Source of the DNA: an uncultured virus (IMG/VR IMGVR_UViG_2791355488_000009)
Lineage: Duplodnaviria; Heunggongvirae; Uroviricota; Caudoviricetes
Length of the DNA stretch: 64,000 bases
Strand: one strand, 5' to 3'
Virus record (IMG/VR): IMGVR_UViG_2791355488_000009
The notes under the pieces are model-generated. The model was not told the DNA's origin, made no database searches, and worked only from the letters and a program-made list of their open reading frames with translations. The position numbers and the translations under genes are program-made. Shown here in pieces: positions 1 to 50,725 of the stretch. Numbering within the stretch: the first letter of the stretch is position 1; the number at the start of each line of letters is the position of its first letter.

Positions 1-1635
1 ATGATAAGTGAGATTATAGTCGAGGCATTAACAATCACATGTAATTATATGTCTCAAAATTATAGTGATAAAAATTATAAAATTCTCTTTGATGAAATAT
101 TAACTATAGCTGGAATTGATAAATTTGAGTTTGAGAGTGATGAAACAATTTATTCATACGAGGCTGTTCAAAAAATATTATCATCTTTAAATGAAAAGGA
201 AAATACAAGAAAAACTAAAGGGGTGTACTACACACCTATTGATGTTGTGAGATTCATATTAATTAACACTATAAAATCGGCTTGTGGGAAATTAAAACCA
301 AATGGGTTACATGTTTTAGATTTAAATGGTATTCCTTACAATAATTTTTGTTTTAGCAAGACCGTATTTGATCCTACATGTGGAGCAGGAGAATTTCTTG
401 TCGCTGCACTAGAGATAAAACTAGACTTACTGGATTTACATAAAGCAAATATTAGTAAAGGCAACCTCAAAAAGATTATCAGAACTATAAAAGGCAATGA
501 CGTTAATGTTGATTCGATTATAATTTCGAAGATTAGACTATTTCTATGTGCGTTGCAAAGACAAGGTGTAGCAAAAGTGTCAGGACTAGGGATAGAATTG
601 AACAACTCTTTTGAAAGCTATGATTTCGTTCAAGAAACCCCAACTAGTGAAAAAAGTTTTGACATTATAGTTGGGAATCCCCCATATGTAGAAGACTCTA
701 AGAGCGGTTTATCTCCAGAAAACAAGTATGGTAATATTTATGCGAATGTATTAGAGAATTCGAGTAAGCATCTTAAGCAAAACGGTTCGATGGGTTTTGT
801 AATTCCTCTTTCTTATGTGTCTACACCAAGAATGTCTAAAATTAGAGAGATCTTACATGTCTATGTACCTGAGCAATATATATTGAGTTATTCGGATAGG
901 CCGGATTGCTTGTTTACGTCGGTACATCAAAAATTATGTATTTTAATAGGTAAAAATAAAAAGATTGAAAAAACTATTTTTACGGGAAACTATCGCTATT
1001 GGTATAGTGAAGAGAGACCAGAGTTATTCAATACGGTTGAAGTTGTCAGAAATCTATATGGAACTGATAGTTACATACCTAAATTAGGAACTATTACGGA
1101 TAAAGATATATATGCAAAAGTAATTAATAATGAAAGTAAGTTAATAGATGCCATGAAAGGAAATCAAGGATCTGTTTATTTAAATATGAGAGCGGCTTTT
1201 TGGATTAAAGCTTTTGTTAATAAGCATAATGGTGGCGAATATAAAGAGTATGGTTGCCAAAGTAAGGAAATGGCAAATTATATTATGTGCATTCTAAATT
1301 CTTCTTTATTTTGGTGGTATTGGATATGTGTATCAGATTGTTGGCACATAACAAGAAAAGAATTAATCGGATTTACAATTCCTAAAAATTCCAATTTTAG
1401 AGAGACAGATAGACTCGCTAAACTACTTGAAGATAAACTGGAAGTAACAAAAAAATATGTGGGTACTAAGCAAACCGAGTATGAGTATAAACATAAAGAG
1501 TGCATTGATGAAATTCATGAAATCGATGATTATATCAATAAATTATACGGACTTACAGAAGAAGAAAGCCTTTATATCAAAAACTTTGCTTTTAGATATA
1601 GAATAGGTGGAGGTGTTGAAAATGAAAGTAATTGA
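1..1635 (+). CDS. Amino (probably N6-adenine) DNA methyltransferase of RM cassette; may extend upstream of the window
   Basis: GVYYTP, motif I FDPTCGAGEF, motif IV GNPPY. Confidence 0.85.
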   Translation: MISEIIVEALTITCNYMSQNYSDKNYKILFDEILTIAGIDKFEFESDETIYSYEAVQKILSSLNEKENTRKTKGVYYTPIDVVRFILINTIKSACGKLKPNGLHVLDLNGIPYNNFCFSKTVFDPTCGAGEFLVAALEIKLDLLDLHKANISKGNLKKIIRTIKGNDVNVDSIIISKIRLFLCALQRQGVAKVSGLGIELNNSFESYDFVQETPTSEKSFDIIVGNPPYVEDSKSGLSPENKYGNIYANVLENSSKHLKQNGSMGFVIPLSYVSTPRMSKIREILHVYVPEQYILSYSDRPDCLFTSVHQKLCILIGKNKKIEKTIFTGNYRYWYSEERPELFNTVEVVRNLYGTDSYIPKLGTITDKDIYAKVINNESKLIDAMKGNQGSVYLNMRAAFWIKAFVNKHNGGEYKEYGCQSKEMANYIMCILNSSLFWWYWICVSDCWHITRKELIGFTIPKNSNFRETDRLAKLLEDKLEVTKKYVGTKQTEYEYKHKECIDEIHEIDDYINKLYGLTEEESLYIKNFAFRYRIGGGVENESN

Positions 1636-2722
1636 TTTGTTTTCAGGGTGTGGAGGGCTTTCATATGGATTTATTAAAGATGGATTTCAAATAAAAAGAG
1701 CAGTGGAATTTGATGCAAGTATAGCCAATACTTATATTCTAAATCACCCAGAAGTTGATATGATTGTTGATGATATTCAGAATATTGACCAAGCAGGAGT
1801 ATTTACTCAAGGTGACGCGGATGTAATTATTGGAGGCCCCCCTTGTCAAGGCTTTTCAATGGCAGGAGCGAGAATTCGCACAGGATTCATTGATGATCCT
1901 CGGAATTATTTATTTAAGCATTATTTTAATGTCGTCAAAACAGTAAAACCAAAAATTTTTATCATGGAAAATGTCAAAGGAATAATGACAATGCAAGGAG
2001 GGAAAATCTTTGATGAAATATTGCGGATTTTCTCCGATGAAGAATTATTAGAAGGACAATCATATAAAACTTACCATCGTCTTGTGAAAGCTGTTGATTT
2101 TGGAATTCCTCAAAAAAGAGAAAGAATGATAATAATTGGCACGTTATTAAACGAGGTTGACTTTGATAGAGTATGGCAACAAACTAAAGAGGAAATTGAA
2201 AGAGATTATCCCTTATATTTCCATAAGGTTACTATAGCTGATGCTATTAATAATTTACCGAAAACAACATCAGATGGTATCATTAGCAATCCTGAAATCC
2301 AAACAGAATACCAAAAATATTTAGCTTGTGATTCTAACACACTTAATAATCATACTAAAACAAACCACTCTAAAGTTGCTGTCGATAGAATGAAGAAGGT
2401 AGATAATGGTGAGAACTTCACTGTATTGGATGAAAAAATAAATTCTATTCATAGTGGTTCTTATGGACGCTTATCTTGGGATGATCAAGCTCCAACTATT
2501 ACTACAAGGTTTGACACACCTGCAGGAGGAAGATTTATCCATCCTGTTGAGAACCGTACTCTATCACCACGTGAGGCGGCCAGGATACAAAGTTTTCCAG
2601 ATGATTTTATTTTCTATGGTAATAAAACATCAATATGCAAGCAAATCGGAAATGCAGTTCCACCAAAGATATCCTATTTCTTGGCGAGGTTTGTAAGAAA
2701 TATATTAAATGAGGAGGTATAA
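1622..2722 (+). CDS. C5-cytosine DNA methyltransferase of RM cassette
   Basis: DLFSGCGG, GGPPCQGFS, ENV, QKRER, IGNAVPP; ggaggt SD before ATG 1622. Confidence 0.95.
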   Translation: MKVIDLFSGCGGLSYGFIKDGFQIKRAVEFDASIANTYILNHPEVDMIVDDIQNIDQAGVFTQGDADVIIGGPPCQGFSMAGARIRTGFIDDPRNYLFKHYFNVVKTVKPKIFIMENVKGIMTMQGGKIFDEILRIFSDEELLEGQSYKTYHRLVKAVDFGIPQKRERMIIIGTLLNEVDFDRVWQQTKEEIERDYPLYFHKVTIADAINNLPKTTSDGIISNPEIQTEYQKYLACDSNTLNNHTKTNHSKVAVDRMKKVDNGENFTVLDEKINSIHSGSYGRLSWDDQAPTITTRFDTPAGGRFIHPVENRTLSPREAARIQSFPDDFIFYGNKTSICKQIGNAVPPKISYFLARFVRNILNEEV

Positions 2723-2727
2723 GCTAT

Positions 2728-4599
2728 ATGAACCCATTATTAGAAAGCAAATTAAACGAACTTAACAGTGCAGCAGATTATGAATGTTGGTATTTGGTGA
2801 AACAGCCAACAGCATTTGATAATATCTGTTATCTTGTTAGTTTCTTAGAAGATTTTAAAGCACAAGATAATCCAGGAAATCTACAGGACTACATCGCAAA
2901 TAAAATAGAAACACTAAAGACAATAAAACCGAATGTGGATATATCTAATAATTATCGTGCTCTGAGAGTAGCGGCATTTTTTGGTCTTATTACTATGACA
3001 AACACGAAGTATGAGAATGCAGTTATTACAGATTCGTTTAAAGAGGTTACATTAAGATGCAATGGTGAATATGAGAAGACAGGATTATATTTAGACATTA
3101 TACAGCGTCAAATTGAAAAAATGTATATCAGCTCTTCTGTAGATGAAGAATATGAAGGAGTAAGGCAAGACTACAGATTGTACCCCGTTATGTTGCTATA
3201 TAAGGTGTTGGTTGAACTTGGACGTTCAACCGGTAATTACTCTATTTCAATGACAGAGTATAGATACTTGGTGGCTACAACAAAAACATTTGAAGGTTTT
3301 CTTGATACGCTTTTATTAATTAAATTATTACGTGATGATTCTGATGCAACAACTTCATTTGAACAATATCGTTCTAAGTTTGACAATCGTCTAATTCAAG
3401 CACTGAAACAACTTTCGACATTGGTTGTTGAAAGAGATTCCATTTCACTCAATGAAGATTATATTGAAGAGGTGGCACATAAAGTATATATTTTTGAGGA
3501 CAACCCAAATATATTCACGACAGAAAACTATCTGGGGTTTCTTGGCTCGACAAAATCCTTGTTTGAGTTAGAAAAATTTGAAGAAGAAGAGGAACTAACA
3601 ATTTATGAAAATTCCACTAGAGTTAAAGGTGGAATGAATACCTTATTATATGGAGTCCCTGGGTCTGGAAAGAGCTGGACTATTGAAAAAGAGTATTGTG
3701 ATGATGAAAGCAGAATGGAGCGTCTTGTATTCCACCCAGATTACACTTACTCGGATTTTATTGGTCAAATTCTTCCTAATGTGTCTGATGGTATTGTAAG
3801 TTATAAGTTTACGGAAGGACCATTTACAAGTCTATTGAAAAAAGCTTATACAAATCCTGAAAAGATGTTTTACCTTATAATTGAAGAAATTAATCGTGGA
3901 AACGCACCAGCTATATTTGGCGAAGTTTTTCAACTTCTAGATCGCAAAGACGATGGAACGAGTGAGTATGGAATAACTAACGTGGATATTGCGAATATAG
4001 TCTACAACAATCCAAATAAAAAAGTTCGTATTCCTTCTAATATGTCTATCATTGGAACAATGAATACATCAGACCAGAATGTGTTCACTCTTGACACTGC
4101 CTTTCAACGTCGTTGGAATATGCGTATGATAGAAAACACATTTGTAGGACATGATTATGCAAGAACAACCATCTTAGACACAGGTGTAACTTGGCAAAGA
4201 TTCTGTGAAGTTATCAATAATGAAATTGTTACAAAAAATATTCGTATGACATCGTCAGAAGATAAAAGACTTGGAACATATTTTGTTAGAGCTGCTGACT
4301 TAGAATATCATGAAGAAGCAGACAATAATGACCTTTCTGAAAAAGAGCAAATTCAAGCAAGGTTGCTTAATTATAGATTTGCTGAGAAAGTTCTTAAATA
4401 TTTATGGGATGATGCTTTTAAATTTTCTCGTGAGGATATTTTCAAAAATACAATTTATAAGAGTCTAGAAGAAGTAGTTAATCACTTTAATTCTAGGAGT
4501 TCTGCAAAAGCAACAGGCAATGATCGTCTAGATGTTTTTAAAGAAGAGATTATTGACGCTTTTCTAACCCAGGATTCAATTGATAGTACTGTTGAGTAA
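2728..4599 (+). CDS. McrB-like AAA+ GTPase restriction subunit (LlaJI R1-like)
   Basis: Walker A GVPGSGKS, FHPDYTYSDF, Walker B IIEEINRG, McrB signature MNTSD, DTAFQRRW. Confidence 0.9.
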   Translation: MNPLLESKLNELNSAADYECWYLVKQPTAFDNICYLVSFLEDFKAQDNPGNLQDYIANKIETLKTIKPNVDISNNYRALRVAAFFGLITMTNTKYENAVITDSFKEVTLRCNGEYEKTGLYLDIIQRQIEKMYISSSVDEEYEGVRQDYRLYPVMLLYKVLVELGRSTGNYSISMTEYRYLVATTKTFEGFLDTLLLIKLLRDDSDATTSFEQYRSKFDNRLIQALKQLSTLVVERDSISLNEDYIEEVAHKVYIFEDNPNIFTTENYLGFLGSTKSLFELEKFEEEEELTIYENSTRVKGGMNTLLYGVPGSGKSWTIEKEYCDDESRMERLVFHPDYTYSDFIGQILPNVSDGIVSYKFTEGPFTSLLKKAYTNPEKMFYLIIEEINRGNAPAIFGEVFQLLDRKDDGTSEYGITNVDIANIVYNNPNKKVRIPSNMSIIGTMNTSDQNVFTLDTAFQRRWNMRMIENTFVGHDYARTTILDTGVTWQRFCEVINNEIVTKNIRMTSSEDKRLGTYFVRAADLEYHEEADNNDLSEKEQIQARLLNYRFAEKVLKYLWDDAFKFSREDIFKNTIYKSLEEVVNHFNSRSSAKATGNDRLDVFKEEIIDAFLTQDSIDSTVE

Positions 4600-4613
4600 G
4601 GTGGTGATAATCT

Positions 4614-5921
4614 ATGGAAATAAGCACTGAATTGCTGAAGAGCAAGTGCCATGTTAATACGAATGAAGAGGGGGATCGCTTTGTTGGCATCAAGGCTGAT
4701 TCTGAAAATGCGATGGTCTATTTTCCTATGGGTTATCAATTGCCAGACACAGAACATGAACGAAGAAGAGATATTTTGCATCTAATATCCGTACTTTCAG
4801 AATTTACGGTCAGAAATGATAGAGTTCTCCATATGAAAAAGTTTGAAGCTCCTCAATCCGTTGATTTTCCTGTCAATGCATATATGGAAGTAATAAACTA
4901 CTATTTGGAGCAACGCTCATATTACACAGAGAAGGAGCCTATCTATAAAACTAGCGATCGTGGTAACACCGACTGGGCTAAAACAATTCGTCAGCAGAAA
5001 CCTTTGTTGCAAGCTAACAATTCGCCTATTTATTTAAAACAGACAGTAAGGGATTCTACACCGAATGATCGTAATCTGATAACACAAATCCACAAGTACT
5101 GTGTATATGAGAGTTTTCAAAAATTAGGATGGTTGTTTACACCAAATCTTCCACCTAAACCAGATTTTCCGATTGATATAAAACGGTTTCTTATTGAACT
5201 AAATGATAAATTAGGTAAAACAAATAATGATAAAGATAAACGTCTTTTCACTTCAATGATTGCAATGCTTAAGTATATAGATGAAGAGACAAACAAACGT
5301 CAATTCTATTTTGGGACAGATAGTTTCGAGTATGTATGGGAAAAACTTATTGACAGAGTATTTGGTGTTAGTAACAAAAACTCATATTTTCCAAAGGCAA
5401 CCTGGCACCTAAAAAAAGGTAAGACAAGAACATTTGAAGCTCTTAGGCCAGATACAATCATGGTTTGCAATAACAAAATCTATGTCTTAGACGCAAAGTA
5501 TTATAGATATGGATTAACTGGCGAACCCATGCATCTGCCAGAGGGTAGATCTATACATAAGCAGATAACTTATGGTGAATATATAAGTACAAACAATAAA
5601 TTTAAAGATGAAAATGGCAATAATCCAACGGTATACAATGCATTTTTGATGCCATACAATTCACGAGAAAATATTTTTGATTTGTCTGGTATATTTGAAA
5701 ATTGTGGTGAAAGTACTGGTGAGTGGAAAGGGCATGATAATACTTTTGAACATGTCCAAGGCATCTTGGTCGATATCAATTACTTGATGCACCATTACAC
5801 AGGAAACCACTCGAAAAAAATTATAGCCTTAGCAGATTCGATAGAGAGAGCTTTAGCTGAAAATGGTGGAAATTTACCTACAGAGGCTGAAATAAGTGTA
5901 TCAGTTGGATCAGATTATTAA
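4614..5921 (+). CDS. LlaJI-family (McrC-like) restriction endonuclease subunit
   Basis: FVGIK..VYFPMGY N-terminus, FEYVWE, PD-(D/E)xK core RPDTIM...DAKYY, KQITYGEY; follows McrB-like gene. Confidence 0.85.
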   Translation: MEISTELLKSKCHVNTNEEGDRFVGIKADSENAMVYFPMGYQLPDTEHERRRDILHLISVLSEFTVRNDRVLHMKKFEAPQSVDFPVNAYMEVINYYLEQRSYYTEKEPIYKTSDRGNTDWAKTIRQQKPLLQANNSPIYLKQTVRDSTPNDRNLITQIHKYCVYESFQKLGWLFTPNLPPKPDFPIDIKRFLIELNDKLGKTNNDKDKRLFTSMIAMLKYIDEETNKRQFYFGTDSFEYVWEKLIDRVFGVSNKNSYFPKATWHLKKGKTRTFEALRPDTIMVCNNKIYVLDAKYYRYGLTGEPMHLPEGRSIHKQITYGEYISTNNKFKDENGNNPTVYNAFLMPYNSRENIFDLSGIFENCGESTGEWKGHDNTFEHVQGILVDINYLMHHYTGNHSKKIIALADSIERALAENGGNLPTEAEISVSVGSDY

Positions 5922-5944: not shown

Positions 5945-5990
5945 AAAAATCACCGTTACTATGTGGACTGCATAGTGACGGTGATTTTTT
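5945..5990. terminator. Bidirectional intrinsic terminator between convergent genes
   Basis: aaaaaatcaccgttactatg / catagtgacggtgatttttt inverted repeat with A and T tails. Confidence 0.85.
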
Positions 5991-7212
5991 ATTTTTGAGC
6001 CATTTTCTTTACTTTTTTCCGGTGATTGCGCTGAGCAGTTGCATTTCTACAGTTAGGGCTACAATATTTTTTACGACCATTAGAAGTCTTCACTAAGAAA
6101 TGATTATTGCAAGCAGGATTAGCGCATTCTCTATATATTTCAGAACCTGGTCTCATATAAAATATTGAAAAATATAAGGCCGAAAGCAGGTTAGTGGCTT
6201 TCCACGAAGGCTCCATTTTACTTGCCACGAAACGAGGCACAATTCCAGAAAGATTTGAATTAATTTCTTCATTTAACACAATCTTTGCGACTATTATAAG
6301 AGCCTGTTTAAGGTTGTCATCAAAATTTTCAATAGCCGGTTTATCATAAAATTCGATGCCATTTTCATAAGTTACTTTACTAACCACACCTACCTTTCTC
6401 ATAAGATGAAATAGGAAATCTATGGTAATACGAGCAGCAGGTGTTTCATTTGGTGCATTGCGATATAGATAAACAATATCTTTATATCGAAGGTCGTTCA
6501 TTCCTGGATAACGGTTTGTCAAAGAACTACCCGAAATAATATCTTGATATTCCTCAATATTTAAATCATATGTTGGTTTATATACTGAATCATTAATTAT
6601 ATACGTTTCACTTTCAAAGCCTTCTTTGGTGCCGTCAATCTCGGGTACTGAGGAGGCTTTTTCTAATGTTTTAATAAAACCATGATAACAAGTCGAATAT
6701 GGTTTGCTCATAGAATTTAACTTGATAGAAACTCGCTCAGACAGAAGAAGATAAAGAGTTAGGTATAGTATTTTCTCATAGTTTCTATTAGGTTCTTCAA
6801 TCTCACTCATGAGAAGAACTGTTGCTTTTATATGATTCACAACTTCAGTTAACGAATGTATATCGATTTCCTCGTATTCTGCTTTACTAACAGGAAAGAA
6901 AAAACCGTTTTCCTCAAAAAAACTTCGTATGCTGTCCACTTCGTTTGGTAAAGAGATTAGTTCACTTAGCAAGTTTTCTTTTCTAACTGATCCCATCGGT
7001 GTGGTTCTACAAAGACCGTTTGAACCACTAAAGGCATAATGTAATTCATTTTGTTCATCAGATTGAATTTTCAAAGTGTGTCTCATCTCACCAGGAGAAA
7101 GATTAACAACATCAACACCTGTAAAACATCTATAGCCGTATAGAGAAAAATAATCATTTCCTAAATTAAAAAAGTTTTCATTTTCTAATGCAATATTTTC
7201 GATTTCAGACAT
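5989..7212 (-). CDS. CGNR zinc-finger domain protein, putative regulator
   Basis: C-terminal ECANPACNNHF...KKYCSPNCRNATAQRNHRKK; ggaggagg SD on the minus strand. Confidence 0.75.
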   Translation of the reverse strand: MSEIENIALENENFFNLGNDYFSLYGYRCFTGVDVVNLSPGEMRHTLKIQSDEQNELHYAFSGSNGLCRTTPMGSVRKENLLSELISLPNEVDSIRSFFEENGFFFPVSKAEYEEIDIHSLTEVVNHIKATVLLMSEIEEPNRNYEKILYLTLYLLLSERVSIKLNSMSKPYSTCYHGFIKTLEKASSVPEIDGTKEGFESETYIINDSVYKPTYDLNIEEYQDIISGSSLTNRYPGMNDLRYKDIVYLYRNAPNETPAARITIDFLFHLMRKVGVVSKVTYENGIEFYDKPAIENFDDNLKQALIIVAKIVLNEEINSNLSGIVPRFVASKMEPSWKATNLLSALYFSIFYMRPGSEIYRECANPACNNHFLVKTSNGRKKYCSPNCRNATAQRNHRKKVKKMAQK

Positions 7213-7365
7213 AAGAATTTCCTCCTCCTCATACTACAAGCACATAAAATCACATCCACAAGTAATTGAATAAATAATCGTAAATTCATTATATCAAATT
7301 TTAGTAATCAAAACAATAACCTTTGAAAGTTGATTTTTATTAATAGTAAGCAATAAATTCAGAAA

Positions 7366-7436
7366 TTTACTTACTTTTTGAGACTGATTACAATTATAGA
7401 TGAGGGGAATCCCTCTTTAAATTTATCAGTCTCAAA
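7366..7436 (+). promoter_or_regulatory. Putative sigma-A promoter overlapped by a 12-bp inverted repeat (operator candidate)
   Basis: TTTACT(7366-7371)-17-TACAAT(7389-7394); tttgagactgat (7377-7388) / atcagtctcaaa (7425-7436). Confidence 0.55.
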
Positions 7437-7632
7437 GTCCAAGATGCGCATTAGGACGGCGGGATGCATAGAGAGTTCGGAACACAGTGATAAAGACTGT
7501 GTTTGGAATGAAGATGCACCCACCGTTATTTCGTGTGCCCTTTTTTAGGACAAACGAAGTTTGTGGTCATCTTATCCGCAGACTCTTTTGCATTCCGCCA
7601 CCCATAGATGGGACGGAAAGGAATGCAAAATG
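7437..7632 (+). ncRNA. Structured 5' leader RNA of the sigma-like gene with mutually exclusive folds (candidate translational switch)
   Basis: Consecutive stems; 7586-7596/7620-7630 stem covers SD and start; 7458-7481 can alternatively pair with 7575-7599. Confidence 0.65.
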
Positions 7633-8172
7633 AAAATACGAGTTTTATATGAAGATCACATCAAAAACGGTCACAAGAACTACACCACAATTGAAATTCC
7701 AGATGGAGATTACAGTGTCATGCTGGATATCGACTATGAGCAACGTCTTGCAGAGGCAAATCCTGAAAAGAAAGCGGAGGTGAAACGCTGCGAGACTCTA
7801 CAAGAAATGTTCGACCTCATGAACAACAAGGAATACAACCATTGGCGCCGCTACCATCGACATCTTGGTAATCCCAAGACACCTTATCGGAAAGATGGTG
7901 AAGATGAAACAGATGTCATGGATACTTTCGCTGATAACTCTCAGGAGATAGAACGAAGTCTCCAAGATGAGTACGAATCTGTCTGCCAATGGATACGCAA
8001 GGCTCTCGGTAAAAAACAAGATTGGGCAGATATGTTCATTGCAGTTCGTATAGACGGTATGTCTATCCGTGAGTATGCGAGTTCCATCGGTGCAAGTGAG
8101 AACAACATTACTCAGAAATTAAAGCGAGCAACAAAGAAATTAGAACAAGAATATAAAAACCGTCAGATTTGA
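7630..8172 (+). CDS. Phage sigma-70 region-4-like HTH protein (sigma factor or activator)
   Basis: C-terminal FIAVRIDGMSIREYASSIGASENNITQKLKRATKKL; aaagga SD before ATG 7630. Confidence 0.75.
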   Translation: MKIRVLYEDHIKNGHKNYTTIEIPDGDYSVMLDIDYEQRLAEANPEKKAEVKRCETLQEMFDLMNNKEYNHWRRYHRHLGNPKTPYRKDGEDETDVMDTFADNSQEIERSLQDEYESVCQWIRKALGKKQDWADMFIAVRIDGMSIREYASSIGASENNITQKLKRATKKLEQEYKNRQI

Positions 8173-8235: not shown

Positions 8236-9015
8236 ATGGAATTACAAGTTTACAAAAATGCAGAGTTAGGCTCTGTACGTACTACAACGATTGGCGGGCA
8301 ACCATATTTTGTTGGCAAGGATGTAGCAAGCATTCTTGGTTATGCAAATACTCGCAAAGCTTTAATTGACCACGTTTATGAAGAGGACAAGGGAGTAACG
8401 AAATGTGACACCCTTGGTGGAAAACAGGATTTGATTATTATCAATGAATCCGGTCTTTATAGCCTCATACTCTCAAGCAAAATGCCAAATGCTAAGAAGT
8501 TTAAGCGATGGGTCACCAATGAAGTCCTCCCTGCTATTCGCAAACATGGACTTTATGCAACAGACGATTTAATCGCAAATCCAGACCTTGCCATTGCTGC
8601 TTTTACTGCACTGAAAGAGGAACGAGAAAAGAACAAGGAATTGATGGCAGCCGTTGCGATTGGTCAGCAGCAAATTGCTGAGATGAAACCCAAGGCTACC
8701 TATTATGATGTAGTGCTTAAATGCAGGGATGCGGTCAACATTTCTGTGATTGCCAAAGATTATGGCTGGAGTGCCATGCGCATGAACGAACACCTCCATG
8801 AAAAAGGCATTCAGTTTAAGCAAGGTGATATATGGCTTCTCTACCAAAAGTATGCTCCAAATGGATATACCAAAACCAATACTCACATTTATGAAGATAG
8901 CAAAGGTATAAAGCATACGAAAGTGCATACCAAGTGGACACAAAAAGGCAGACTCTTTATCTATGAACAGCTAAAGGCAGACGATATTTATCCGCAGATT
9001 GAGATGGAGGTGTGA
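8236..9015 (+). CDS. Phage antirepressor (BRO-N + KilA-C)
   Basis: PYFVGKDVASILGY, INESGLYSL, WVTNEVLPAIRKHG, TKWTQKGRLFI. Confidence 0.9.
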   Translation: MELQVYKNAELGSVRTTTIGGQPYFVGKDVASILGYANTRKALIDHVYEEDKGVTKCDTLGGKQDLIIINESGLYSLILSSKMPNAKKFKRWVTNEVLPAIRKHGLYATDDLIANPDLAIAAFTALKEEREKNKELMAAVAIGQQQIAEMKPKATYYDVVLKCRDAVNISVIAKDYGWSAMRMNEHLHEKGIQFKQGDIWLLYQKYAPNGYTKTNTHIYEDSKGIKHTKVHTKWTQKGRLFIYEQLKADDIYPQIEMEV

Positions 9016-15451: not shown

Positions 15452-16615
15452 ATGAAAAAATATAGAACGTGTGAAAGTGTATGCAAAGGTCATCCCGATA
15501 AATTATGTGACCTTATTTCAGATAGCATCTTAGATGCGTGTTTAAGAAAAGATAAATCCTCTCGTGTTGCTTGCGAGGTGATGGCTACCAAAGGACACAT
15601 CATTGTTGCCGGTGAGATTACCTGCTCAAAGAGAATTGATATCAGAGGTGTTGTTCGCCGTGTTCTGACGGATGTGGGCTACAATCCTAGAAAGTTTTTA
15701 GTCTTTGTCTATGTCCATCAGCAAAGTAAAGATATCGCAGGTGGTGTAGATAAGGCTTTGGAATCTCGTGAGGGTGATACGTCATGGTATTCCATGTTAG
15801 GAGCGGGTGACCAAGGCACCGTTTATGGCTATGCCACCAATGAAACCAGTGAGAAACTACCTCTCCCCTTAGTCTTATCCCATGCCATTTGCGAAAAGCT
15901 AGATAAGGTGATGAAGAATGGCGTGATTAAAGATATTGGCCCAGATGGTAAGGCTCAAGTGACGGTGGAATATGAAGGTGACAAACCAAAACGAATTAAG
16001 ACCATCGTTGTCTCCGTTCAACACAGTGCAGATAAAGATTTAGATGTTTTAAGAAATGAAGTCATTGCTCAGGTGCTGTGGCCAGTCTTTGAAAAATATC
16101 CATTTGACGATGAGACTGAGATCCTCATCAATCCAAGTGGACGATTTGTCGAAGGCGGACCAGCTGCAGATACCGGACTGACGGGAAGAAAAATCATGGT
16201 TGATACCTATGGTGGACTCGCCGCTCATGGTGGCGGTGCATTTTCAGGAAAAGACCCGACAAAAGTTGACCGCAGTGGTGCCTACATGGCGAGGGCAATT
16301 GCAAAGAATATTGTTCGATGTGGTTTTGCTAAGCGATGTCAGGTTGCGATTTCCTATGCCATTGGAAAAGCAGATCCGGTTGCTCTTGAGATTGATACCT
16401 TTGGAACAGGCACGGTGGAAGAAAGTATCCTTTGTCGTGCAGTGCTAGATGTATTCAATCTAAGACCTGCAGCCATTATCGAAAAGCTAAAACTGACGGA
16501 TGTTATTTATGCAGATACAGCTACTTACGGTCATTTCAGATATGGCTTAAGCACGTGGGAGTTTCTAGATTGCTATACAGAACTAAGGGAGGCGGTAAAC
16601 AAATATGTTGATTGA
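15452..16615 (+). CDS. metK: S-adenosylmethionine synthetase
   Basis: ESVCKGHPDK, GAGDQG, DGKAQVT, GGGAFSGKDPTKVDRS. Confidence 0.95.
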   Translation: MKKYRTCESVCKGHPDKLCDLISDSILDACLRKDKSSRVACEVMATKGHIIVAGEITCSKRIDIRGVVRRVLTDVGYNPRKFLVFVYVHQQSKDIAGGVDKALESREGDTSWYSMLGAGDQGTVYGYATNETSEKLPLPLVLSHAICEKLDKVMKNGVIKDIGPDGKAQVTVEYEGDKPKRIKTIVVSVQHSADKDLDVLRNEVIAQVLWPVFEKYPFDDETEILINPSGRFVEGGPAADTGLTGRKIMVDTYGGLAAHGGGAFSGKDPTKVDRSGAYMARAIAKNIVRCGFAKRCQVAISYAIGKADPVALEIDTFGTGTVEESILCRAVLDVFNLRPAAIIEKLKLTDVIYADTATYGHFRYGLSTWEFLDCYTELREAVNKYVD

Positions 16616-17840
16616 AAAGAAGAACACAAAAGACCTCATCCCTGCAACATACAATCCTCGTAAAGATTTAAAACCCGGTGATGCAGAATACGATAAATTA
16701 AAACGCTCCATTGAACAATTTGGTTATGTAGAGCCGGTTATCTGGAATAAGATGACCGGACATGTTGTTGGTGGGCATCAAAGACTAAAGGTTCTCATGG
16801 ATATGGGCATCACAGAAGTTGAGTGTGTCATCATTGAAATGGATGAAGAGAAAGAGAAAGCACTCAACATCGCACTCAATAAAATCAGCGGTGATTGGGA
16901 CAAGGATAAACTGGCCCTTTTAATTTCAGATTTACAAGGTGTAGATTTTGATGTTTCCCTAACTGGATTTGACCCTAAAGAACTGGATGACTTATTCAAG
17001 GACACATTGAAAGACGGTATCCACGATGATGACTTTGATGTGGAGACAGAACTAAAAAAGCCTGCCATCAGCAAGCTTGGTGACATATGGACGCTTGGCA
17101 GACACAGGCTTATCTGTGGTGATTCTACCAAGAAAGAAACCTATGATGTGCTGATGAATAAAAAGAAGGCAAACTTGTGCGTAACAGATCCTCCCTACAA
17201 TGTGAATTATGAAGGTGCTGCAGGGAAAATCAAAAATGACCATATGGCAAATGATGCCTTCTACCAGTTCCTCTTAGATGCCTTTATCAATATCGAAGAA
17301 GTTCTGGCAGACGATGCCTCCATCTATGTATTCCATGCCGACACCGAAGGGTTTAATTTTAGAAAAGCCTTCTCAGATGCCGGTTTTTATTTGTCTGGCT
17401 GTTGTATCTGGAAAAAGGACTCTCTTGTACTGGGGCGTTCTCCTTATCAATGGCAGCACGAACCTGTGCTGTTTGGCTGGAAGAAGAAGGGCAAGCATCA
17501 GTGGTATACGGGCAGGAAAGAAACCACCATCTGGGAATTTGATAAGCCGAAGAGAAATGGAGACCATCCTACGATGAAACCCATTCCTCTGCTCGCCTAT
17601 CCGATTTTGAACTCCTCGATGACTAACACCATTGTGCTAGATCCTTTTGGCGGCAGTGGTAGTACCTTAATTGCTTGTGAACAATCAGAGCGCATTTGCT
17701 ACACGGCAGAATTAGATGAGAAGTTTTGCGATGTCATTATCAAACGCTACATTGAACAGGTCGGTTCCTCTACCGAAGTCAGCGTTCAAAGGGATGGACT
17801 AAGTTACAACTATGATGAACTGGAGGTTGCTGATGGTTAA
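16605..17840 (+). CDS. ParB-N domain + N4/N6 DNA methyltransferase
   Basis: YNPRK..GGHQR ParB-like domain; TDPPY; HPTMKP; LDPFGGSGST. Confidence 0.9.
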   Translation: MLIEKKNTKDLIPATYNPRKDLKPGDAEYDKLKRSIEQFGYVEPVIWNKMTGHVVGGHQRLKVLMDMGITEVECVIIEMDEEKEKALNIALNKISGDWDKDKLALLISDLQGVDFDVSLTGFDPKELDDLFKDTLKDGIHDDDFDVETELKKPAISKLGDIWTLGRHRLICGDSTKKETYDVLMNKKKANLCVTDPPYNVNYEGAAGKIKNDHMANDAFYQFLLDAFINIEEVLADDASIYVFHADTEGFNFRKAFSDAGFYLSGCCIWKKDSLVLGRSPYQWQHEPVLFGWKKKGKHQWYTGRKETTIWEFDKPKRNGDHPTMKPIPLLAYPILNSSMTNTIVLDPFGGSGSTLIACEQSERICYTAELDEKFCDVIIKRYIEQVGSSTEVSVQRDGLSYNYDELEVADG

Positions 17841-19569
17841 ACTAACCCTTGGCAGTCTTTTTGATGGTTCAGGTGGTTTTCCTTTAGGCGGTTTAATTTC
17901 TGGTATTACCCCAGTATGGGCATCGGAGATTGAACCGTTTCCTATTAGGGTCACAACGAAAAGGCTGCCTTTTATAAAACATTACGGCGATATTTCAACC
18001 ATGGATGGCAGTAAGATAGAACCGGTAGATATTATTACTTTTGGCTCACCTTGTCAGGATTTATCCATAGCAGGTAAGCGTGATGGCTTGGATGGTAAAC
18101 GTTCAAGTCTTTTTTATGAGGCCATCCGAATTGTAAAAGAAATGAGGTGTGCTACAGATGGCAAAAAACCAAGATATATTGTCTGGGAAAACGTCCCTGG
18201 AGCCTTCTCATCAAATAAAGGAGAAGATTTCAGATGTGTCCTTGAAGGCATCTGCCACATCAAGGATGAAACCTTATCAGTTCCTAAGATTGATAAGTGG
18301 AAACAAGCAGGAACTATTGTGGGAGATCATTTCTCCCTTGCCTGGCGAGTGCTTGACGCTCAATACTGGGGAGTTCCCCAACGAAGAAAACGCATCTTCC
18401 TTGTCGCAGATTTTGCAGGTGGGGGTGTCGGAGAAATACTATTTAAGTCAGAAGGCTTGTCTGGGTATTCTAAAAAGAGCATCCGCTCGTGGCAAGGAAC
18501 TGCCAGCAACTTTGCAGACAGCATTGGAGCGACAGGCACAATCTGCTTAAATGACCAAGGCGGAGAACGCATGGATGTGACAACAGATATCACTTGCACT
18601 TTGAGGGCGAAATCAAATCATCCGCCTTGTATCATTGACTCTGCAGTTTTTGATAATCATGGAAAGGATACACGTTTTACTGGGCCAATCGATGTTGCAC
18701 CAACGATTTCTGCGACCTATGGAACAGGAGGCAACAATCAACCATTTGTTGTGGAGAATTCTAAGACTTATGATGTGCGATTTACCTCGGAAGGAACTGT
18801 AAATGCCCGTTCTAATGTTTACGAGAGTGATACGGCAAGAACGATTGATACGTCGGGTAATGCACCGGACAGCAATCAAGGTGGTATTGCAGTGGTGGAA
18901 TCTTATGGCTTACAAGGTTCTATAATAGGACGGGCAGATAAGAATGGACCTCAAGGTGATGGTGTGAATGAGGAGCTTAGTTTCACTTTAAATACCGTAG
19001 ATAAACACGCTGTGGTATATGCCATTGATAGAGAGTCATTTAACTGCGGTCAAAACTATGCTAGAAACCTAGGAATTACTGAAGACGGAATTAATTCCAC
19101 ACTAAAGGCACAAGGCCCTAGTGCTGTTGCAACTCCTACCTATTCATCCAGTAAGGCATCATTTTTTACAGATGCCAAAGAGGAACTTGCCAATACGCTG
19201 GTTGCTACCGACTACAAAGATCCGCCACTTATCAATGATAATGACGGGATAGATTATACGGTGAGAAGACTAACTCCAACTGAGTGTGCAAGACTGCAAG
19301 GTTTTCCAGATTGGTGGTGCAGTGATTTAGGCATAGAGAACCCAACGATGGATGACCTTCGGATTTGGTATGACATCTTTGAAACATTCCGTAAAGCGAC
19401 AGGAGCTTATTCCAAATCTAAGACACTAAAGCAAATCACGAAGTGGCTTAAAAACCCTCATTCAGATTCTGCAGAATATAAGATGTGGGGTAATGGAGTA
19501 GCCTTGCCCAATGTATGTTTTGTCCTATCGGGCATTGTTTGGTTTACACAATTAGAAGTGAAATCTTAA
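17833..19569 (+). CDS. Phage C5-cytosine DNA methyltransferase with long repeated variable region
   Basis: SLFDGSGG, GSPCQD, WENVPG, QRRKR, RRLTPTECARLQGFPD, YKMWGNGV. Confidence 0.9.
   Translation: MVKLTLGSLFDGSGGFPLGGLISGITPVWASEIEPFPIRVTTKRLPFIKHYGDISTMDGSKIEPVDIITFGSPCQDLSIAGKRDGLDGKRSSLFYEAIRIVKEMRCATDGKKPRYIVWENVPGAFSSNKGEDFRCVLEGICHIKDETLSVPKIDKWKQAGTIVGDHFSLAWRVLDAQYWGVPQRRKRIFLVADFAGGGVGEILFKSEGLSGYSKKSIRSWQGTASNFADSIGATGTICLNDQGGERMDVTTDITCTLRAKSNHPPCIIDSAVFDNHGKDTRFTGPIDVAPTISATYGTGGNNQPFVVENSKTYDVRFTSEGTVNARSNVYESDTARTIDTSGNAPDSNQGGIAVVESYGLQGSIIGRADKNGPQGDGVNEELSFTLNTVDKHAVVYAIDRESFNCGQNYARNLGITEDGINSTLKAQGPSAVATPTYSSSKASFFTDAKEELANTLVATDYKDPPLINDNDGIDYTVRRLTPTECARLQGFPDWWCSDLGIENPTMDDLRIWYDIFETFRKATGAYSKSKTLKQITKWLKNPHSDSAEYKMWGNGVALPNVCFVLSGIVWFTQLEVKS
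18158..18550 (+). CDS. Nested +1-frame ORF inside the C5 MTase (M.EcoHK31I beta-subunit-like)
   Basis: SD-like gaggtg 7 nt before ATG 18158; SSLSQIL..KYYLS.KAC.GIL.RA..RGKELP..L..AL sequence. Confidence 0.65.
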   Translation: MAKNQDILSGKTSLEPSHQIKEKISDVSLKASATSRMKPYQFLRLISGNKQELLWEIISPLPGECLTLNTGEFPNEENASSLSQILQVGVSEKYYLSQKACLGILKRASARGKELPATLQTALERQAQSA

Positions 19570-43799: not shown

Positions 43800-45365
43800 A
43801 TGATGAAAAAGATAACAAAAATAGATGAACTGCCCCAGGGACAACTACCTAATACGAAACTTAGGGTTGCCGCCTATGCCAGGGTATCAACCGATAGTGA
43901 TGAACAGCTTGAAAGCCTTAAAGCACAGCGTGAACACTATGAGCGCTATATTAAGTCTAATCCAGAATGGGTATTTGCTGGTCTTTATTATGACGAAGGG
44001 ATCTCCGGCACCAAGGTGGAGAAACGGACTGAACTGCTCCGTATGATACGAGATTGTAAGCAAGGTCGGATTGATTTTATTATCACCAAATCAATCAGCC
44101 GCTTTGCTCGTAATACAGTAGATTGTCTAGAGTTAGTAAGAAAACTGATTGATATCGGTGTTTATATTTATTTTGAAAAAGAGAATCTAAATACGGGTGA
44201 TATGGAAAGTGAACTGATGCTTTCTATTCTTTCAGGGTTTGCTGCAGAAGAGTCTGCATCTATTTCACAAAACTCAACATGGTCCATTCAAAAGAGATTT
44301 CAAAATGGCAGTTATGTCGGTACTCCACCCTACGGCTACACCAATACAGATGGTGAAATGGTAATCGTCCCAGAAGAAGCAGAAATCATCAAACGTATTT
44401 TTACTGAGTGCCTTTCAGGGAAAGGTGGAGGTACTATAGCAAGAGGTTTGAACAAAGACAAAATCCCTGCAAGTAGAGGTAATCACTGGAGTGCAGGCAC
44501 GGTGATAGACATGCTTCGAAACGAAAAATATATGGGTGATGTCCTACTGCAAAAGACTTACACCGATAGTAACTACAACCGCCATCCAAACACAGGGGAA
44601 AAAGACCAATACTACTACAAGGATAATCATGAACCTATTATAAGTAGAGAAGACTTTGCTAAGGCACAAGATCTCATTGATGAAAGAGCCAAGATGAAGT
44701 GTAAGGGCGTGAAAAAGAACGTTTATCTTAATCGATATGCTTTAAGTGGCAAGATTGTCTGTGGAGAGTGTGGTCGCAATTTTAGGAGAAAGACAAACTA
44801 CTCAGCTGGTAGGAGTTACATTGCTTGGAGTTGCATCGGTCATATCGAAGACAAAGAGAGTTGCTCCATGTTGTTCTTGCGAGATGGGGAAATCAAAGCC
44901 ACCTTTACCACCATGATGAATAAGCTTGCTTTCAGTAACAAGCTAATCCTAGAGCCACTTTTCAAATCAATTAGCCAAATCGATGAAGAAAGCGACCGTG
45001 AAAGAATGGATGCTATTGATAAGCGAATGGAGCAACTCATGGAAGAACGCAACACCCTTATTACACTGATGGCCAAAGGTTTCCTGGAGCCAGCTCTTTT
45101 TAATCAGGAACGTAATGTCTTGGATAGTGAGATAAAAAATCTTACAACTGAAAAAACAAACCTGGTAACGAACTCTACGAGTGGGGTTTTACGAGCAAAC
45201 GATATAAAGGACCTCATTGATTACGTGTCAGCAGATAATTTTAATGGTGACTACACGGAAGAACTATTTGAAGAATTTGTAGAGAACATCATTGTAAATT
45301 CCAGGGATGAGCTGACATTCAATTTGAAATGCGGTCTTTCCCTGAAAGAAAAGGTGGTGAGATAA
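43800..45365 (+). CDS. Large serine recombinase
   Basis: [24 protein letters not shown], zinc ribbon CGECG. Confidence 0.95.
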   Translation: MMKKITKIDELPQGQLPNTKLRVAAYARVSTDSDEQLESLKAQREHYERYIKSNPEWVFAGLYYDEGISGTKVEKRTELLRMIRDCKQGRIDFIITKSISRFARNTVDCLELVRKLIDIGVYIYFEKENLNTGDMESELMLSILSGFAAEESASISQNSTWSIQKRFQNGSYVGTPPYGYTNTDGEMVIVPEEAEIIKRIFTECLSGKGGGTIARGLNKDKIPASRGNHWSAGTVIDMLRNEKYMGDVLLQKTYTDSNYNRHPNTGEKDQYYYKDNHEPIISREDFAKAQDLIDERAKMKCKGVKKNVYLNRYALSGKIVCGECGRNFRRKTNYSAGRSYIAWSCIGHIEDKESCSMLFLRDGEIKATFTTMMNKLAFSNKLILEPLFKSISQIDEESDRERMDAIDKRMEQLMEERNTLITLMAKGFLEPALFNQERNVLDSEIKNLTTEKTNLVTNSTSGVLRANDIKDLIDYVSADNFNGDYTEELFEEFVENIIVNSRDELTFNLKCGLSLKEKVVR

Positions 45366-45782
45366 ATGGCATATATTCCATATGGATACAAAATTCAAGA
45401 TGGAGTGGTTACTGTCGATGAAAAGGCAGCAGGTCAAGTAAAGGTATTCTTTGAGAAATACATATCAGGACTATCCCTTACAGTGGCTGGCGAACAGGCA
45501 GGTATTGATAAGACACATTCTGTGATGGGTCGCATTTTGAAAAACGTCAACTACCTTGGAAATGATACGTATCCAGCAATTATTGATAAAGAGATATTTG
45601 ATAAAGCTGAAGAAGTTAGAGATAAGCGTGCAAAGGATTTAGGACGAGTGGTAGAGCTTGCCGCTTTCACCTCTCCCCCTCCCAAAGAACGATTCAAAAT
45701 GAAAAAGGCAGATAATAAGATGCCAGTGGATCCTTTTGAACGAGCAGAATACTTATACAGTCTGATAGAAAGCGAGGAATAA
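45366..45782 (+). CDS. Short recombinase-domain protein (no catalytic domain)
   Basis: PYGY, ILKN..YLG, YPAII. Confidence 0.8.
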
Positions 45783-45783
45783 A

Positions 45784-47346
45784 GTGACAGAGAAAAATAT
45801 AATGGTTATTCCTGCTCGTAAAAGAGTAGGAAGTACAGCTGCAAAAGAAAAGATAAAGAAACTTCGTGTTGCTGCCTATTGCCGTGTTTCTACAGAAACA
45901 GAAGAACAGAATTCTAGCTATGAGGTTCAGGTCGCACACTATACAGAGTTTATAAAAAAGAATAATGAGTGGGAGTTTGCCGGTATTTTTGCAGATGATG
46001 GTATCTCCGGTACGAACACCAAAAAGCGTGACGAATTTAATCGTATGATTGTAGAGTGTATGGACGGCAACATCGACATGGTTATTACAAAATCCATCAG
46101 CCGATTTGCACGTAACACCTTAGACTGCCTTCAATACATTAGACAGCTCAAGGATAAGAACATATCCGTCTATTTTGAAAAAGAGAACATCAATACCATG
46201 GATGCCAAAGGTGAGGTTTTACTAACCATTATGGCATCTTTGGCACAACAGGAAAGCCAGAGCCTTTCTCAAAACGTTAAGCTTGGGCTACAGTACCGAT
46301 ACCAACAAGGAAAGGTGCAGGTCAATCATAAGCGATTTATGGGCTACACCAAAGATGAAGATGGAAATTTAATCATTGTTCCCGAAGAAGCTGAGATTAT
46401 CAAACGCATCTACCGAGAATACCTTGAAGGTCAGAGTCTAGTGGGTATTGGTCGAGGTCTTGAAAAAGATGGTATTTTAACAGCAGCTGGAAAACCAAGA
46501 TGGCGACCAGAATCAGTTAAGAAGCTACTTCAAAACGAAAAATACATCGGAGATGCCCTTCTGCAAAAGACTGTCACAGTAGATTTTCTAACCAAGAAAC
46601 GAGTTAAGAATGAAGGTCATCTTCCCCAGTATTATGTTGAAAATAGCCATGAGGCGATTATTCCTAAAGAGTTATTTTTGCAGGTGCAAGAAGAAATTCA
46701 TCGAAGAAGCAATATCTACACAGGAGAAGGCAAGAACAAACGAATTTATAGTAGTAAGTACGCATTAAGTGCCATCACCTTCTGTGGAGATTGTGGCGAT
46801 ATTTATAGACGGGTCTATTGGAATATCCACGGAAGAAAAGAATTTGTCTGGCGATGCGTGACTAGAATTGAGCAGGGTCCTGAGGTATGTAAGAACCGAA
46901 CCGTAAAAGAAGATGAACTTTATGGTGCAGTAATGACTGCGATTAATAAGCTACTTGCAGGTGGGAACAATATGATAAAGACACTGGAAGAGAATATTCA
47001 TGCTGTGATTGGCGAAACCACAGAATACCAAATTTCAGAGATTAACAACTCACTAGAGGAAAAACAAAAAGAACTCATCAAGCTGGCTAATAAGGGGCAA
47101 GACTATGAACATCTAGCAGATGAGATTGATGAGCTGAGAGACAAGCGACAGACCCTTTTAGTAGAAGATGCCTCCCTCAATAGCGAGAACGAGCGAATCG
47201 ATGAACTGATTGAGTTTATCCGCAAGAACAAATTCCGCACTCTAGAATATGACGATAAGCTTGTAAGGAAGATAATCCAGAACGTTACAGTCTATGAAGA
47301 CCACTTCGTCATATCCTTTAAATCAGGCATCGAAATGGAAATATGA
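45784..47346 (+). CDS. Large serine recombinase
   Basis: [29 protein letters not shown]. Confidence 0.95.
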
Positions 47347-49315: not shown

Positions 49316-49693
49316 TATAGAAACCCATATGACCCTAATCAAGTTTCCGAAAAATTAAATGACCTGTTGGAAGACTTTTACGTAAAAGATAAGAAGGGGA
49401 TATATGAATATATTTTGGGTGGCTGTCTAGATTCACGATTATTGAATATTCGTATATTTGCTGAACCTACAAAAACAAGTGTATATCAATCACAAACAAG
49501 TAATGCAAAAGAGCAAGGAGTTTCTAACTGCCCATTATGTGCTATTGGCAGTAATAACAATAAAAGTAGAATATACAAGCAGAGCGAAATGGATGCAGAC
49601 CATGTCACAGCTTGGAGCAAAGGTGGTTCAACGGATGTAGGCAATTGTCAGATGCTTTGTAAAACTCATAATAGAGCAAAGGGTAATAAATAG
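49316..49693 (+). pseudogene. 5'-truncated HNH endonuclease (C-terminus of a DUF262-HNH-type protein)
   Basis: CPLC...MDADHVTAWSKGG.T...NCQMLCKTHNRAKGN; no SD/start; frame opens right after the MTase stop. Confidence 0.65.
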
Positions 49694-49749
49694 AATCACG
49701 ACATATCAAAACACTTTTATACAATAAACTATATTTCTTAGATTGATTC

Positions 49750-49893
49750 ATTGATATGTTTCCACATACGCAAGCCCTCAGTGGATATGTTCCCTCAAAG
49801 ACAATAATGTTCAAGTGACTAATTTTTGACAGCTATGACTTCCTCTTAACACATGTAGAGACTATCGTGTTGATACAACGAGCAGATACGTAG
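49750..49893 (+). other. Fragments of the rlmD/rumA 3' end (att scars, probable attR)
   Basis: IDMFPHT (49750-49770), VDMFPQ (49781-49798), THVETIVLIQRADT* (49849-49893). Confidence 0.7.
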
Positions 49894-50340: not shown

Positions 50341-50390
50341 TTATGTGTCACATGAAAACATTCATTTTTAGAAAGGAAAGGTAAAAACAT

Positions 50391-50705: not shown

Positions 50706-50725
50706 GGAAAGAGAGGAATTATTCT

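Follow-up and report, generated by a model that had tools for sequence, protein, structure and literature searches.

The 64,000-nucleotide (nt) stretch of an uncultured virus of the Caudoviricetes (IMG/VR record IMGVR_UViG_2791355488_000009), referred to here as the window, has a 418-nt gap between a minus-strand gene for a 407-amino acid (aa) protein with a CGNR zinc finger (5989-7212; open reading frame (ORF) and domain scan) and a plus-strand gene for a 180-aa protein (7630-8172). We report that this gap holds a conserved leader RNA (7435-7636, plus strand) with two complete and mutually exclusive sets of helices, both kept by compensatory changes among its relatives, and that one set buries and the other frees the ribosome-binding site of the 180-aa gene. 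A reading made from the letters alone (below, the sequence-only reading) had proposed a two-state leader at this place, and the segments that it named were all found where it had put them.

The 180-aa protein has a C-terminal helix-turn-helix (HTH) resembling sigma-70 region 4 and an N-terminal part without an assigned fold. It matches phrog_11138 (E = 4e-33), while it remains below the gathering cut-off of Pfam Sigma70_r4_2 (E = 5e-5; 23.3 bits vs 25.7) and under the cut-offs of all NCBIfam sigma-70/extracytoplasmic function (ECF) models (28.7 vs 42.9). Automatic Atlas names label it a sigma-70 family protein; membership of that family takes regions 2 and 4, both above the cut-offs, and here region 4 alone was matched. 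The predicted structure is of modest quality (predicted local distance difference test score, pLDDT, 66.2) and gives no hint of RNA binding. Foldseek returned no match to it at E <= 0.001, and the top, non-significant rows were sigma factors, isolated sigma-4 and the HTH domains of KorA and ArdK. We read the protein as a sigma-4-like HTH regulator, and "sigma-like" is to be taken in that sense.

The next gene on the plus strand (8236-9015) encodes an antirepressor, Ant, with Bro-N and KilAC domains (Pfam, 4e-29 and 2e-35). Of the 131 loci with room for a further gene, 72 have such an Ant-like gene behind the sigma-like one; ten of the other 59 were sampled, and in seven of these its place is taken by Rha while in three DUF7768 comes directly. 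In the window Ant is followed on the same strand by DUF7768, a primase/VapE helicase, an SNF2 helicase, a DUF1492 regulator, HNH and the terminase small subunit, and further on by S-adenosylmethionine synthetase, methylases, terminase large subunit, portal, ClpP, capsid and tail genes and a GH25 lysin. The distal genes of this strand include DUF2800, an Enc34-type single-stranded DNA-binding protein, a family-A polymerase and two large serine recombinases. To the left of the leader lies restriction-modification cargo, and host genes start just left of the window, by a uracil-5 methyltransferase gene. This gene order, with cargo and host genes on the left and phage genes on the right, argues that the leader heads the early operon of a prophage.

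Folding of 7437-7650 gave a minimum free energy (MFE) of -81.4 kcal/mol, whereas dinucleotide shuffles gave -50.5 +/- 4.4 kcal/mol (z = -7.04) and none of 200 folded as well. We refer to this structure as the OFF fold. Its 5' arm is closed by two long-range helices, P1 (7437-7444 with 7543-7551) and P2 (7446-7451 with 7533-7538), the 5' strands of which occupy 7437-7451 and the 3' strands 7533-7551; both were delimited by the MFE fold and by covariation. Next comes S1 (7455-7475), the strand that switches partner, and 7455-7469 of S1 pairs with S2 (7514-7527) to form P3. S2, the mask of S1, spans 7510-7527 when the preceding GAAG (7510-7513) is included. P3 encloses P4 (7475-7509; 7475-7488 with 7496-7509), a hairpin with a purine-rich internal loop and an apical loop at 7489-7495, which is common to both folds. 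Downstream of the arm are the hairpin P5 (7558-7566 with 7576-7584, loop 7567-7575) and a U-rich tract (7586-7589), together spanning 7558-7589, then the anti-Shine-Dalgarno strand S3 (7586-7599) and finally S4 (7615-7632), with the Shine-Dalgarno region at approximately 7617-7623 and the start codon at 7630-7632. In the OFF fold S3 sequesters S4 in P6, an 11-bp (base pair) helix of 7586-7596 with 7620-7630, which includes the Shine-Dalgarno region and the first letter of the ATG.

The sequence-only reading had described the leader as almost all stems, and the MFE fold contains S1:S2, the inner stem, the hairpin at 7558-7584 and the 11-bp stem. For this last stem, the placement over the Shine-Dalgarno sequence and the A of the start codon was correct (the codon begins at 7630, not 7631). 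Of the two further stems that had been assigned to the OFF state, the hairpin at 7559-7583 was recovered, whereas a local stem at 7530-7558 is absent from the optimal fold and from the family consensus; its bases instead close the long-range helices P1 and P2.

Relatives of the leader were collected through the gene behind it. Protein-guided scans gave 62 loci on viral contigs and 78 loci in species-representative genomes that encode a homologue of the 180-aa protein (loci are numbered with an L below). A covariance model of the OFF fold, R1, was built on the window together with 21 of the 62 viral leaders, and the window matches it over its full length with 220.8 bits (E about 1e-53). Full-length plus-strand matches ending at the gene start were present at 60 of the 78 genome loci at E <= 1e-3 and at 67 at E <= 0.01; most of the remaining genome loci have no upstream sequence or encode very distant proteins. 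On the minus strand the R1 scores did not exceed about 29 bits vs up to 237 on the plus strand (best minus-strand score in the window, 20.4), and the 4.96-Mb genome to which the window belongs has a single copy of the leader. The RNA is hence conserved, strand-specific and tied to the 180-aa gene. Leader nucleotide identity to the window is 82-90% where the proteins are 65-68% identical, and 61-74% at a protein identity of 38-53%.

A DNA search of a phage collection detected leaders 87-88% identical, from window position 7425-7430 onwards, in Streptococcus phage Javan630 and Erysipelothrix phage phi1605, in both of which the leader is unannotated; searches of this collection did not return Phi1207.3 and Phi-m46.1, and no relation to these is claimed. 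Titles of the genome records name Enterococcus, Erysipelotrichaceae, Anaerotignum, Megasphaera and Lachnospiraceae as hosts. Four loci (L071, L080, L082 and L112) come from metagenome bins labelled Methanolobus, Thermotogaceae, Dissulfurispiraceae and Micrarchaeota, with 89-93% aa identity in three of them and 65%, over a partial match, in L112. Most likely these bins are contaminated with Bacillota prophage and do not represent true hosts. In Javan630 (L063, MK448997.1) the homologue occupies 3977-4519, and the protein alignment begins at 3977 while the annotated start is 4067; the annotated start is thus probably 30 codons too short. One locus, L104, carries two copies of the leader approximately 370 nt apart (724-931, 66.7 bits, and 1298-1507), and the upstream copy, with no ORF of at least 30 aa at its start codon, is probably a decayed duplicate. 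Metatranscriptome contigs (X14) cover 7445-7526, 7497-7599 and 7497-7708, and none extends to the left of 7445. Since contigs give neither the start, the end nor the strand of a transcript and may derive from carried-over DNA, and since relatives diverge upstream of 7425, they were not used as evidence.

As the sequence-only reading had suspected, the leader does not belong to a named RNA family. With Rfam 15 there were no matches at the gathering score in the whole window. At E <= 10, the region 7150-7750 gave three chance-level snoRNA/microRNA matches, none of them on the leader, and eight homologous loci gave none at E <= 0.1. A full-text literature search, the coverage of which excludes subscription journals and supplements, returned nothing on the leader RNA or on the regulation of the 180-aa gene, and two motif catalogues (PMC5737381, PMC8040213) may hold the leader unnamed in their supplements. 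We regard it as a cis-regulatory RNA family that has not been described before and is carried by Bacillota prophages and temperate phages; it is of a known kind, the ribosome-site sequestration switch, and matches no known family.

For covariation we used alignment A4, which holds 78 matches (70 distinct) aligned to R1 from the window, the 78 genome loci and 19 of the 62 viral loci. An earlier alignment, A1, is a plain MAFFT alignment of 38 leaders (the window and 37 viral ones). RNAalifold gave a poor consensus on A1, in which divergent leaders are misaligned, and for this purpose it was superseded by the model-based A4. On A4, which was fitted to the OFF fold and favours it in the counts, 89.4% of the OFF-fold cells are paired vs 34-51% in slid controls, and 48 of the 66 pairs show changes on both sides (259 cells vs 57 +/- 6 in shuffles). 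By helix, two-sided changes were seen in 6 of 8 pairs of P1, 2 of 6 of P2, all 13 of P4 (helices 5 and 6) and 8 of 11 of P6. Moreover, the two column pairs that covary most strongly in the whole alignment (corrected mutual information) sit in P4, the apical loop of which differs between clades.

The loop of P5 may take part in a pseudoknot, as 7511-7516 is complementary to 7568-7573. This candidate is 88.1% paired on A4 with two-sided changes in 11 cells vs 1.9 +/- 1.3 in shuffles, and compensatory cases were seen by eye in the L130, L078 and L027 types; a slide by one column reaches the same score (4 pairs, 11 cells), and we take the pseudoknot as suggestive only.

The alternative, or ON, fold is defined by the helix S1:S3, in which 7458-7468 pairs with 7589-7599 (11 bp), extended by 7470-7475 with 7583-7588. 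Its core and extension correspond to the second fold of the sequence-only reading, which had also included an outer pairing (cgga/tccg, 7478-7481 with 7575-7578); this part is specific to the window's sequence and, by eye, absent from relatives. Although A4 was not fitted to S1:S3, the helix is 96.4% paired on it vs 26-62% in slid controls, and 6 of its 11 pairs show two-sided changes (31 cells vs 5.0 +/- 2.0 in shuffles). Covariation in homologous leaders, the check that the sequence-only reading had put forward, is thus seen for the helices of both folds. The extension is 92% paired and nearly invariant and is therefore uninformative either way. Columns 35 and 223, which are both unpaired in the OFF fold, covary (C-G 52, U-A 13, A-U 1) and rank third of all column pairs by corrected mutual information.

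The same picture emerges from individual sequences and from the tree. Over 25 representatives, 204 of 225 cells are paired in S1:S2, 258 of 275 in S1:S3 and 161 of 175 in S3:S4. S1:S2 is broken by a U-to-C substitution in S1 in three lineages (L123, L127 and L133), all of which carry matching substitutions in S3 (A-to-G) and S4 (U-to-C). On a tree made without the columns under study, pair-type changes numbered 30 over the 11 pairs of S1:S3, 29 over the 7 pairs of S3:S4 and 14 over the 8 pairs of the upper helix of S1:S2. Also the 5' end switches partner: 7437-7440, which pairs with 7548-7551 in P1, pairs in the ON fold with 7454-7457 (P1'). P1' is 94.8% paired on A4 and shows two-sided changes in 3 of 4 pairs (6 cells vs 1.0 +/- 0.9 in shuffles), and when S2 was blocked the consensus of 22 representatives turned into the ON fold with P1' (-42.8 vs -45.5 for the free consensus). 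That the folds exclude each other and are both maintained by compensatory changes, as had been proposed, is accordingly what A4, the per-sequence table and the tree have in common. P1', the candidate loop pseudoknot and the terminator-like hairpin with its U tract (see below) were missing from the sequence-only reading.

As to energy, forcing S1:S3 in the window gave -73.3 vs -81.2 kcal/mol, i.e. ON minus OFF is +7.9 kcal/mol. Over the 25 representatives the difference averages +4.8 kcal/mol, and it comes near zero with a crude pseudoknot term. Such a modest gap fits a switch that can be tipped by a moderate input.

These data lead us to favour, with a probability of roughly 0.7, the explanation that 7435-7636 is the conserved part of an approximately 230-nt early-operon leader that acts as a three-tier switch on translation of the first gene. 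In the OFF state S3 (7586-7599) would pair with the ribosome-binding site and start codon (S4, 7615-7630), while S1 (7455-7475), the sole possible competitor, would be locked to S2 within the 5' arm closed by P1 and P2. In the ON state the 5' end would make a small local hairpin (7437-7440 with 7454-7457) and S1 would leave S2 and capture S3 (7458-7468 with 7589-7599; 7470-7475 with 7583-7588), leaving the ribosome-binding site free; the loop of P5 may then hold the released S2. Because a covarying pairing covers the ribosome-binding site, we infer that the switch would set translation of the first early gene and hence expression of the early operon. A role in deciding for lysis or for lysogeny is plausible from the position of the leader.

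Several observations weigh against this switch. On the MAFFT-only alignment A1, S1:S3 is 88% paired and its covariation is not above that of shuffles, which indicates that the signal stems from the more diverse genome set. Only one of the 70 top mutual-information pairs belongs to the ON fold and 55 belong to neither fold; the latter point to phylogenetic background, such scores being confounded by descent. The divergent L116/L055 group fits R1 poorly (21-35 bits) and has 7 of the 11 S1:S3 pairs. Nearly all conserved bases that are unpaired in the OFF fold pair in the ON fold, and no ligand pocket or protein site is evident. The terminator-like P5 with its U tract is conserved, and a purely translational switch does not explain it. 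Finally, the OFF fold is favoured thermodynamically in most relatives, and the ON fold might be rare or transient.

Taken furthest, the first and last of these points would mean that the OFF fold alone is real, stabilising the mRNA and giving a constant low level of translation, with S1:S3 a by-product of the likeness of S1 to S4 and of S2 to S3. Such a static leader would have the OFF fold as the MFE fold, as it is in the window and in most relatives, and would not be expected to show S1:S3 covariation, as on A1. It does not account for the covariation between columns 35 and 223, for the S1 changes that break S1:S2 and are matched in both S3 and S4, for P1', an independent second alternative pairing that covaries as well, or for the maintenance of S1:S3 through its 30 pair-type changes, and we consider it very improbable.

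The conserved bases of S2 could also be read as coding. In many relatives an open frame reading M-K-M-H-P-P runs over S2, and in some, such as L090 and L045, it ends right after S2. A ribosome on an upstream ORF starting at 7508 or 7514, with its proline codons across S2, might free S1 to capture S3, in the manner of the ermC leader peptide. No Shine-Dalgarno sequence is suitably spaced from this start, which the OFF fold buries. Neither the length nor the stop nor the peptide that follows is conserved, single-base indels put the frame out of register with the main gene, and the frame is absent in L027, L116 and L106 (3 of 24 representatives); RNA pairing explains the conserved bases. Control of the ermC kind requires a short ORF that is conserved, spans the switching segments and has a ribosome-binding site to itself; we found none, and we give this explanation next to no credence.

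P5 calls for a separate account. It is 96.8% paired on A4 with two-sided changes in 6 of 9 pairs, at least five T in the eight nt after it were found in 65 of 69 distinct leaders, and the mean energy of the hairpin is -13.9 kcal/mol. A simple terminator scan flags it in L001 and not in the window or L019. P5 may add transcription attenuation to the translational switch. It is less likely, and in our view unlikely, that attenuation is the main output, with most transcripts stopping at P5 and its U tract (about 7586-7592), release of a stable, approximately 190-nt immunity RNA (P0, a hairpin described below, to P5) that could also act in trans on the transcripts of incoming phages, as the P4 CI and P1 c4 immunity RNAs do, and sequestration of the ribosome site as a back-up for read-through. 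Such an attenuator would agree with the conservation and covariation of P5, with its U tract and terminator-like score in L001, and with the observation, by eye, that the U tract in L001-type relatives has no pairing partner in P6. It would further agree with the antirepressor gene that comes next (72 of 131 loci) and with the logic of P4 immunity, in which one segment is complementary to two others; complementarity of the P4 CI type is present here, S1 being complementary to S2 and to S3. Consensus folding with S1 or S2 blocked revealed no conserved pairing that would stop P5 from forming, and termination would hence be constitutive unless a protein overrides it. Moreover, S1:S3 and S3:S4 lie past the U tract and covary strongly, which means that read-through transcripts must matter. 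Neither S1 nor S2 recurs in the 64-kb window when up to 2-3 mismatches are allowed, the three sequences scanned (the window, L001 and L019) showed no antisense promoter within the leader, and the Rfam C4 model gave no match.

The candidate early promoter, which lies ahead of the conserved part, consists of -35 TTTACT, a 17-nt spacer and -10 TACAAT (7389-7394; 7366-7394 in all, plus strand, 9/12 in a consensus scan). The region is not richer in promoter-like sites than its shuffles, and this single site is weak; across relatives, a TAnnnT hexamer lies 3-10 nt before the hairpin in 30 of 67 distinct upstream contexts vs 12.4 +/- 2.8 for random anchors. The hairpin is P0 (7402-7415, plus strand), which is flagged terminator-like in the window and has counterparts, unrelated in sequence, at the same place in 63 of the 67 contexts. 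From this arrangement transcription would start near 7400, and P0 is probably the 5'-terminal stem-loop of the transcript.

The promoter region has other features. In the window's own subgroup (7371-7436) an imperfect inverted repeat (approximately 7373-7383 with 7423-7433) encloses the -10 box and P0 and also pairs the first conserved bases of the leader, and a 6-bp inverted repeat with a 19-nt spacer (approximately 7343-7373) shares bases with the candidate -35 box; either repeat might be an operator. The region's highest-scoring promoter-like site is on the minus strand (7393-7421; TTTAAA, 17 nt, TATAAT, 10/12), faces the CGNR gene and overlaps the plus-strand candidate, giving a divergent promoter pair. 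Many relatives, the window not among them, have a second conserved element approximately 60-70 nt upstream of the leader (L102:330-460, and also L066-L068, L075, L079, L080, L083, L086, L092, L100, L105, L136, L018, L045, L053 and L126). It is a 9-bp inverted repeat whose arms co-vary between clades, with a 21-nt spacer and a conserved AT-rich core that was scanned as a -10 box in L001, and it might serve as an operator beside the early promoter or form a further RNA hairpin.

The sequence-only reading had spoken of a prophage with no visible CI. No HTH_3-type repressor was present among the ORFs scanned, a scan that was not exhaustive and left out small ORFs, and a protein repressor may act at the operator-like inverted repeats that flank the likely promoter; that part of the reading is thus weakly backed. 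A bolder interpretation would make the leader an RNA-only bistable decision and immunity device, in which the terminator-released, stable RNA of approximately 190 nt shuts the early operon in lysogens and, acting in trans, in superinfecting relatives, in place of a CI-type repressor. We regard this as a long shot. If true, the phage would be committed to its lytic programme by the switch to the ON fold, and the leader would be an analogue of P4/P1 RNA immunity built from an unrelated RNA, spread over many Bacillota classes on prophages with defence and resistance cargo.

As to the trigger of the favoured translational switch, the wide host range argues that it is self-contained, phage-encoded or universal. 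Our tentative guess is a macromolecule, in the simplest case a phage protein such as the HTH product of the operon, which might clamp or open the S1:S2 arm; this is possible, and we would not put it higher. A self-contained refolding, kinetic or driven by processing, is a rather doubtful alternative, a small-molecule ligand is unlikely, and an RNA acting in trans is more unlikely still.

The ligand deserves a closer look. The leader has the layout of a riboswitch platform, with mutually exclusive helices of which one lies over the ribosome-binding site, and the 5' arm (P1-P4) would be the aptamer, with a ligand stabilising S1:S2 and turning translation off, or the reverse. An aptamer with an expression platform in which one aptamer strand serves as anti-sequestor is the usual design, the two folds are close in energy, and a universal ligand would suit the range of hosts. 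Against this, no Rfam riboswitch matches, the arm is a single long hairpin, irregular and lacking a junction of several helices, and its apical loop varies between clades. The conserved bases unpaired in the OFF fold (7470-7474 and 7510-7513) are accounted for by ON-fold or pseudoknot pairing, and the regulated gene encodes a regulator, not a metabolic or transport function that would point to a ligand. We therefore rate a metabolite riboswitch as unlikely.

The surroundings of the operon provided some further observations. To the left (1-5921) the cargo consists entirely of defence genes, for an Eco57I-like N6 methylase, a C5 methylase, a McrB-like AAA_5 protein and a LlaJI-type endonuclease. 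Javan630 and phi1605 have other genes at this position (ATPase, RecD-like helicase), which suggests a variable cargo hotspot just upstream of the leader. Within the phage genes, a full-length S-adenosylmethionine synthetase (15452-16615) adjoins two DNA methylases (16605-19569). The prophage ends with two adjacent large serine recombinases (43800-47346), and directly past these, at 47728-61889, are a nucleotidyltransferase, a class-I methyltransferase and a Tn916-like conjugative module (FtsK, Rep_trans, ArdA, TcpE, AAA_10, NlpC/P60 and TcpC). Two mobile elements thus stand in tandem, and the prophage of the window neighbours resistance-like genes and a conjugative element.

To our knowledge, orphan structured RNAs in which both alternative folds are backed by compensatory changes are rare. 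The leader offers a test case for how an RNA switch is built, since its sensor arm, anti-sequestor, sequestor and 5' end all have co-evolving alternative partners. It fronts the first early-operon gene of a prophage family common in many Bacillota, and finding its trigger would tell how such elements choose between silence and replication. The covariance model is, in addition, a ready marker for locating the early operon of such prophages.

Among known systems, the leader resembles translational riboswitch platforms and three-tier attenuators such as those controlled by PyrR in that S3 has two exclusive partners, S4 or its upstream mimic S1. As in three-tier attenuators, S1 is masked in a sensor hairpin (S1:S2), and here all three pairings covary. 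Unlike the PyrR attenuators, its output would be sequestration of the ribosome site and not a terminator/antiterminator choice, its 5' end also switches partner, and it matches no known aptamer or protein-binding motif, in which it differs from riboswitches as well. With immI of P1/P7 (c4 RNA, icd, ant) it shares a structured leader RNA, a small first ORF and then an antirepressor (72 of 131 loci), and with P1 c4 and P4 CI it shares repeated complementary segments, including one that lies across the first ORF's ribosome-binding site, and a terminator-like element. It has no C4 sequence or structure match, its pairings are intramolecular and form two complete alternative folds, in contrast to those of c4 and P4 CI, and in many of its relatives Ant is replaced by Rha or absent, unlike in P1 immI. 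The hok mRNA of plasmid R1 and the repZ leader of ColIb-P9 are similar in their folding switch, their coupled covariations and the activation of translation by long-range pairing or a pseudoknot; their sequences and genes are unrelated to the present ones, and no counterpart of their antisense RNAs (Sok, Inc) was found in the scans made.

Finally, Aca2 and Aca1, HTH regulators of anti-CRISPR operons, bind an RNA motif in their own 5' untranslated region and repress translation (PMC13551039), which gives a precedent for a phage HTH protein acting on the leader of its own operon. The likeness to the present locus is one of layout only, a phage HTH gene behind a covarying structured RNA directly past the promoter. 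The protein here is sigma-4-like and not of the Aca families, and the leader is an RNA of approximately 200 nt with two folds instead of a short hairpin motif.

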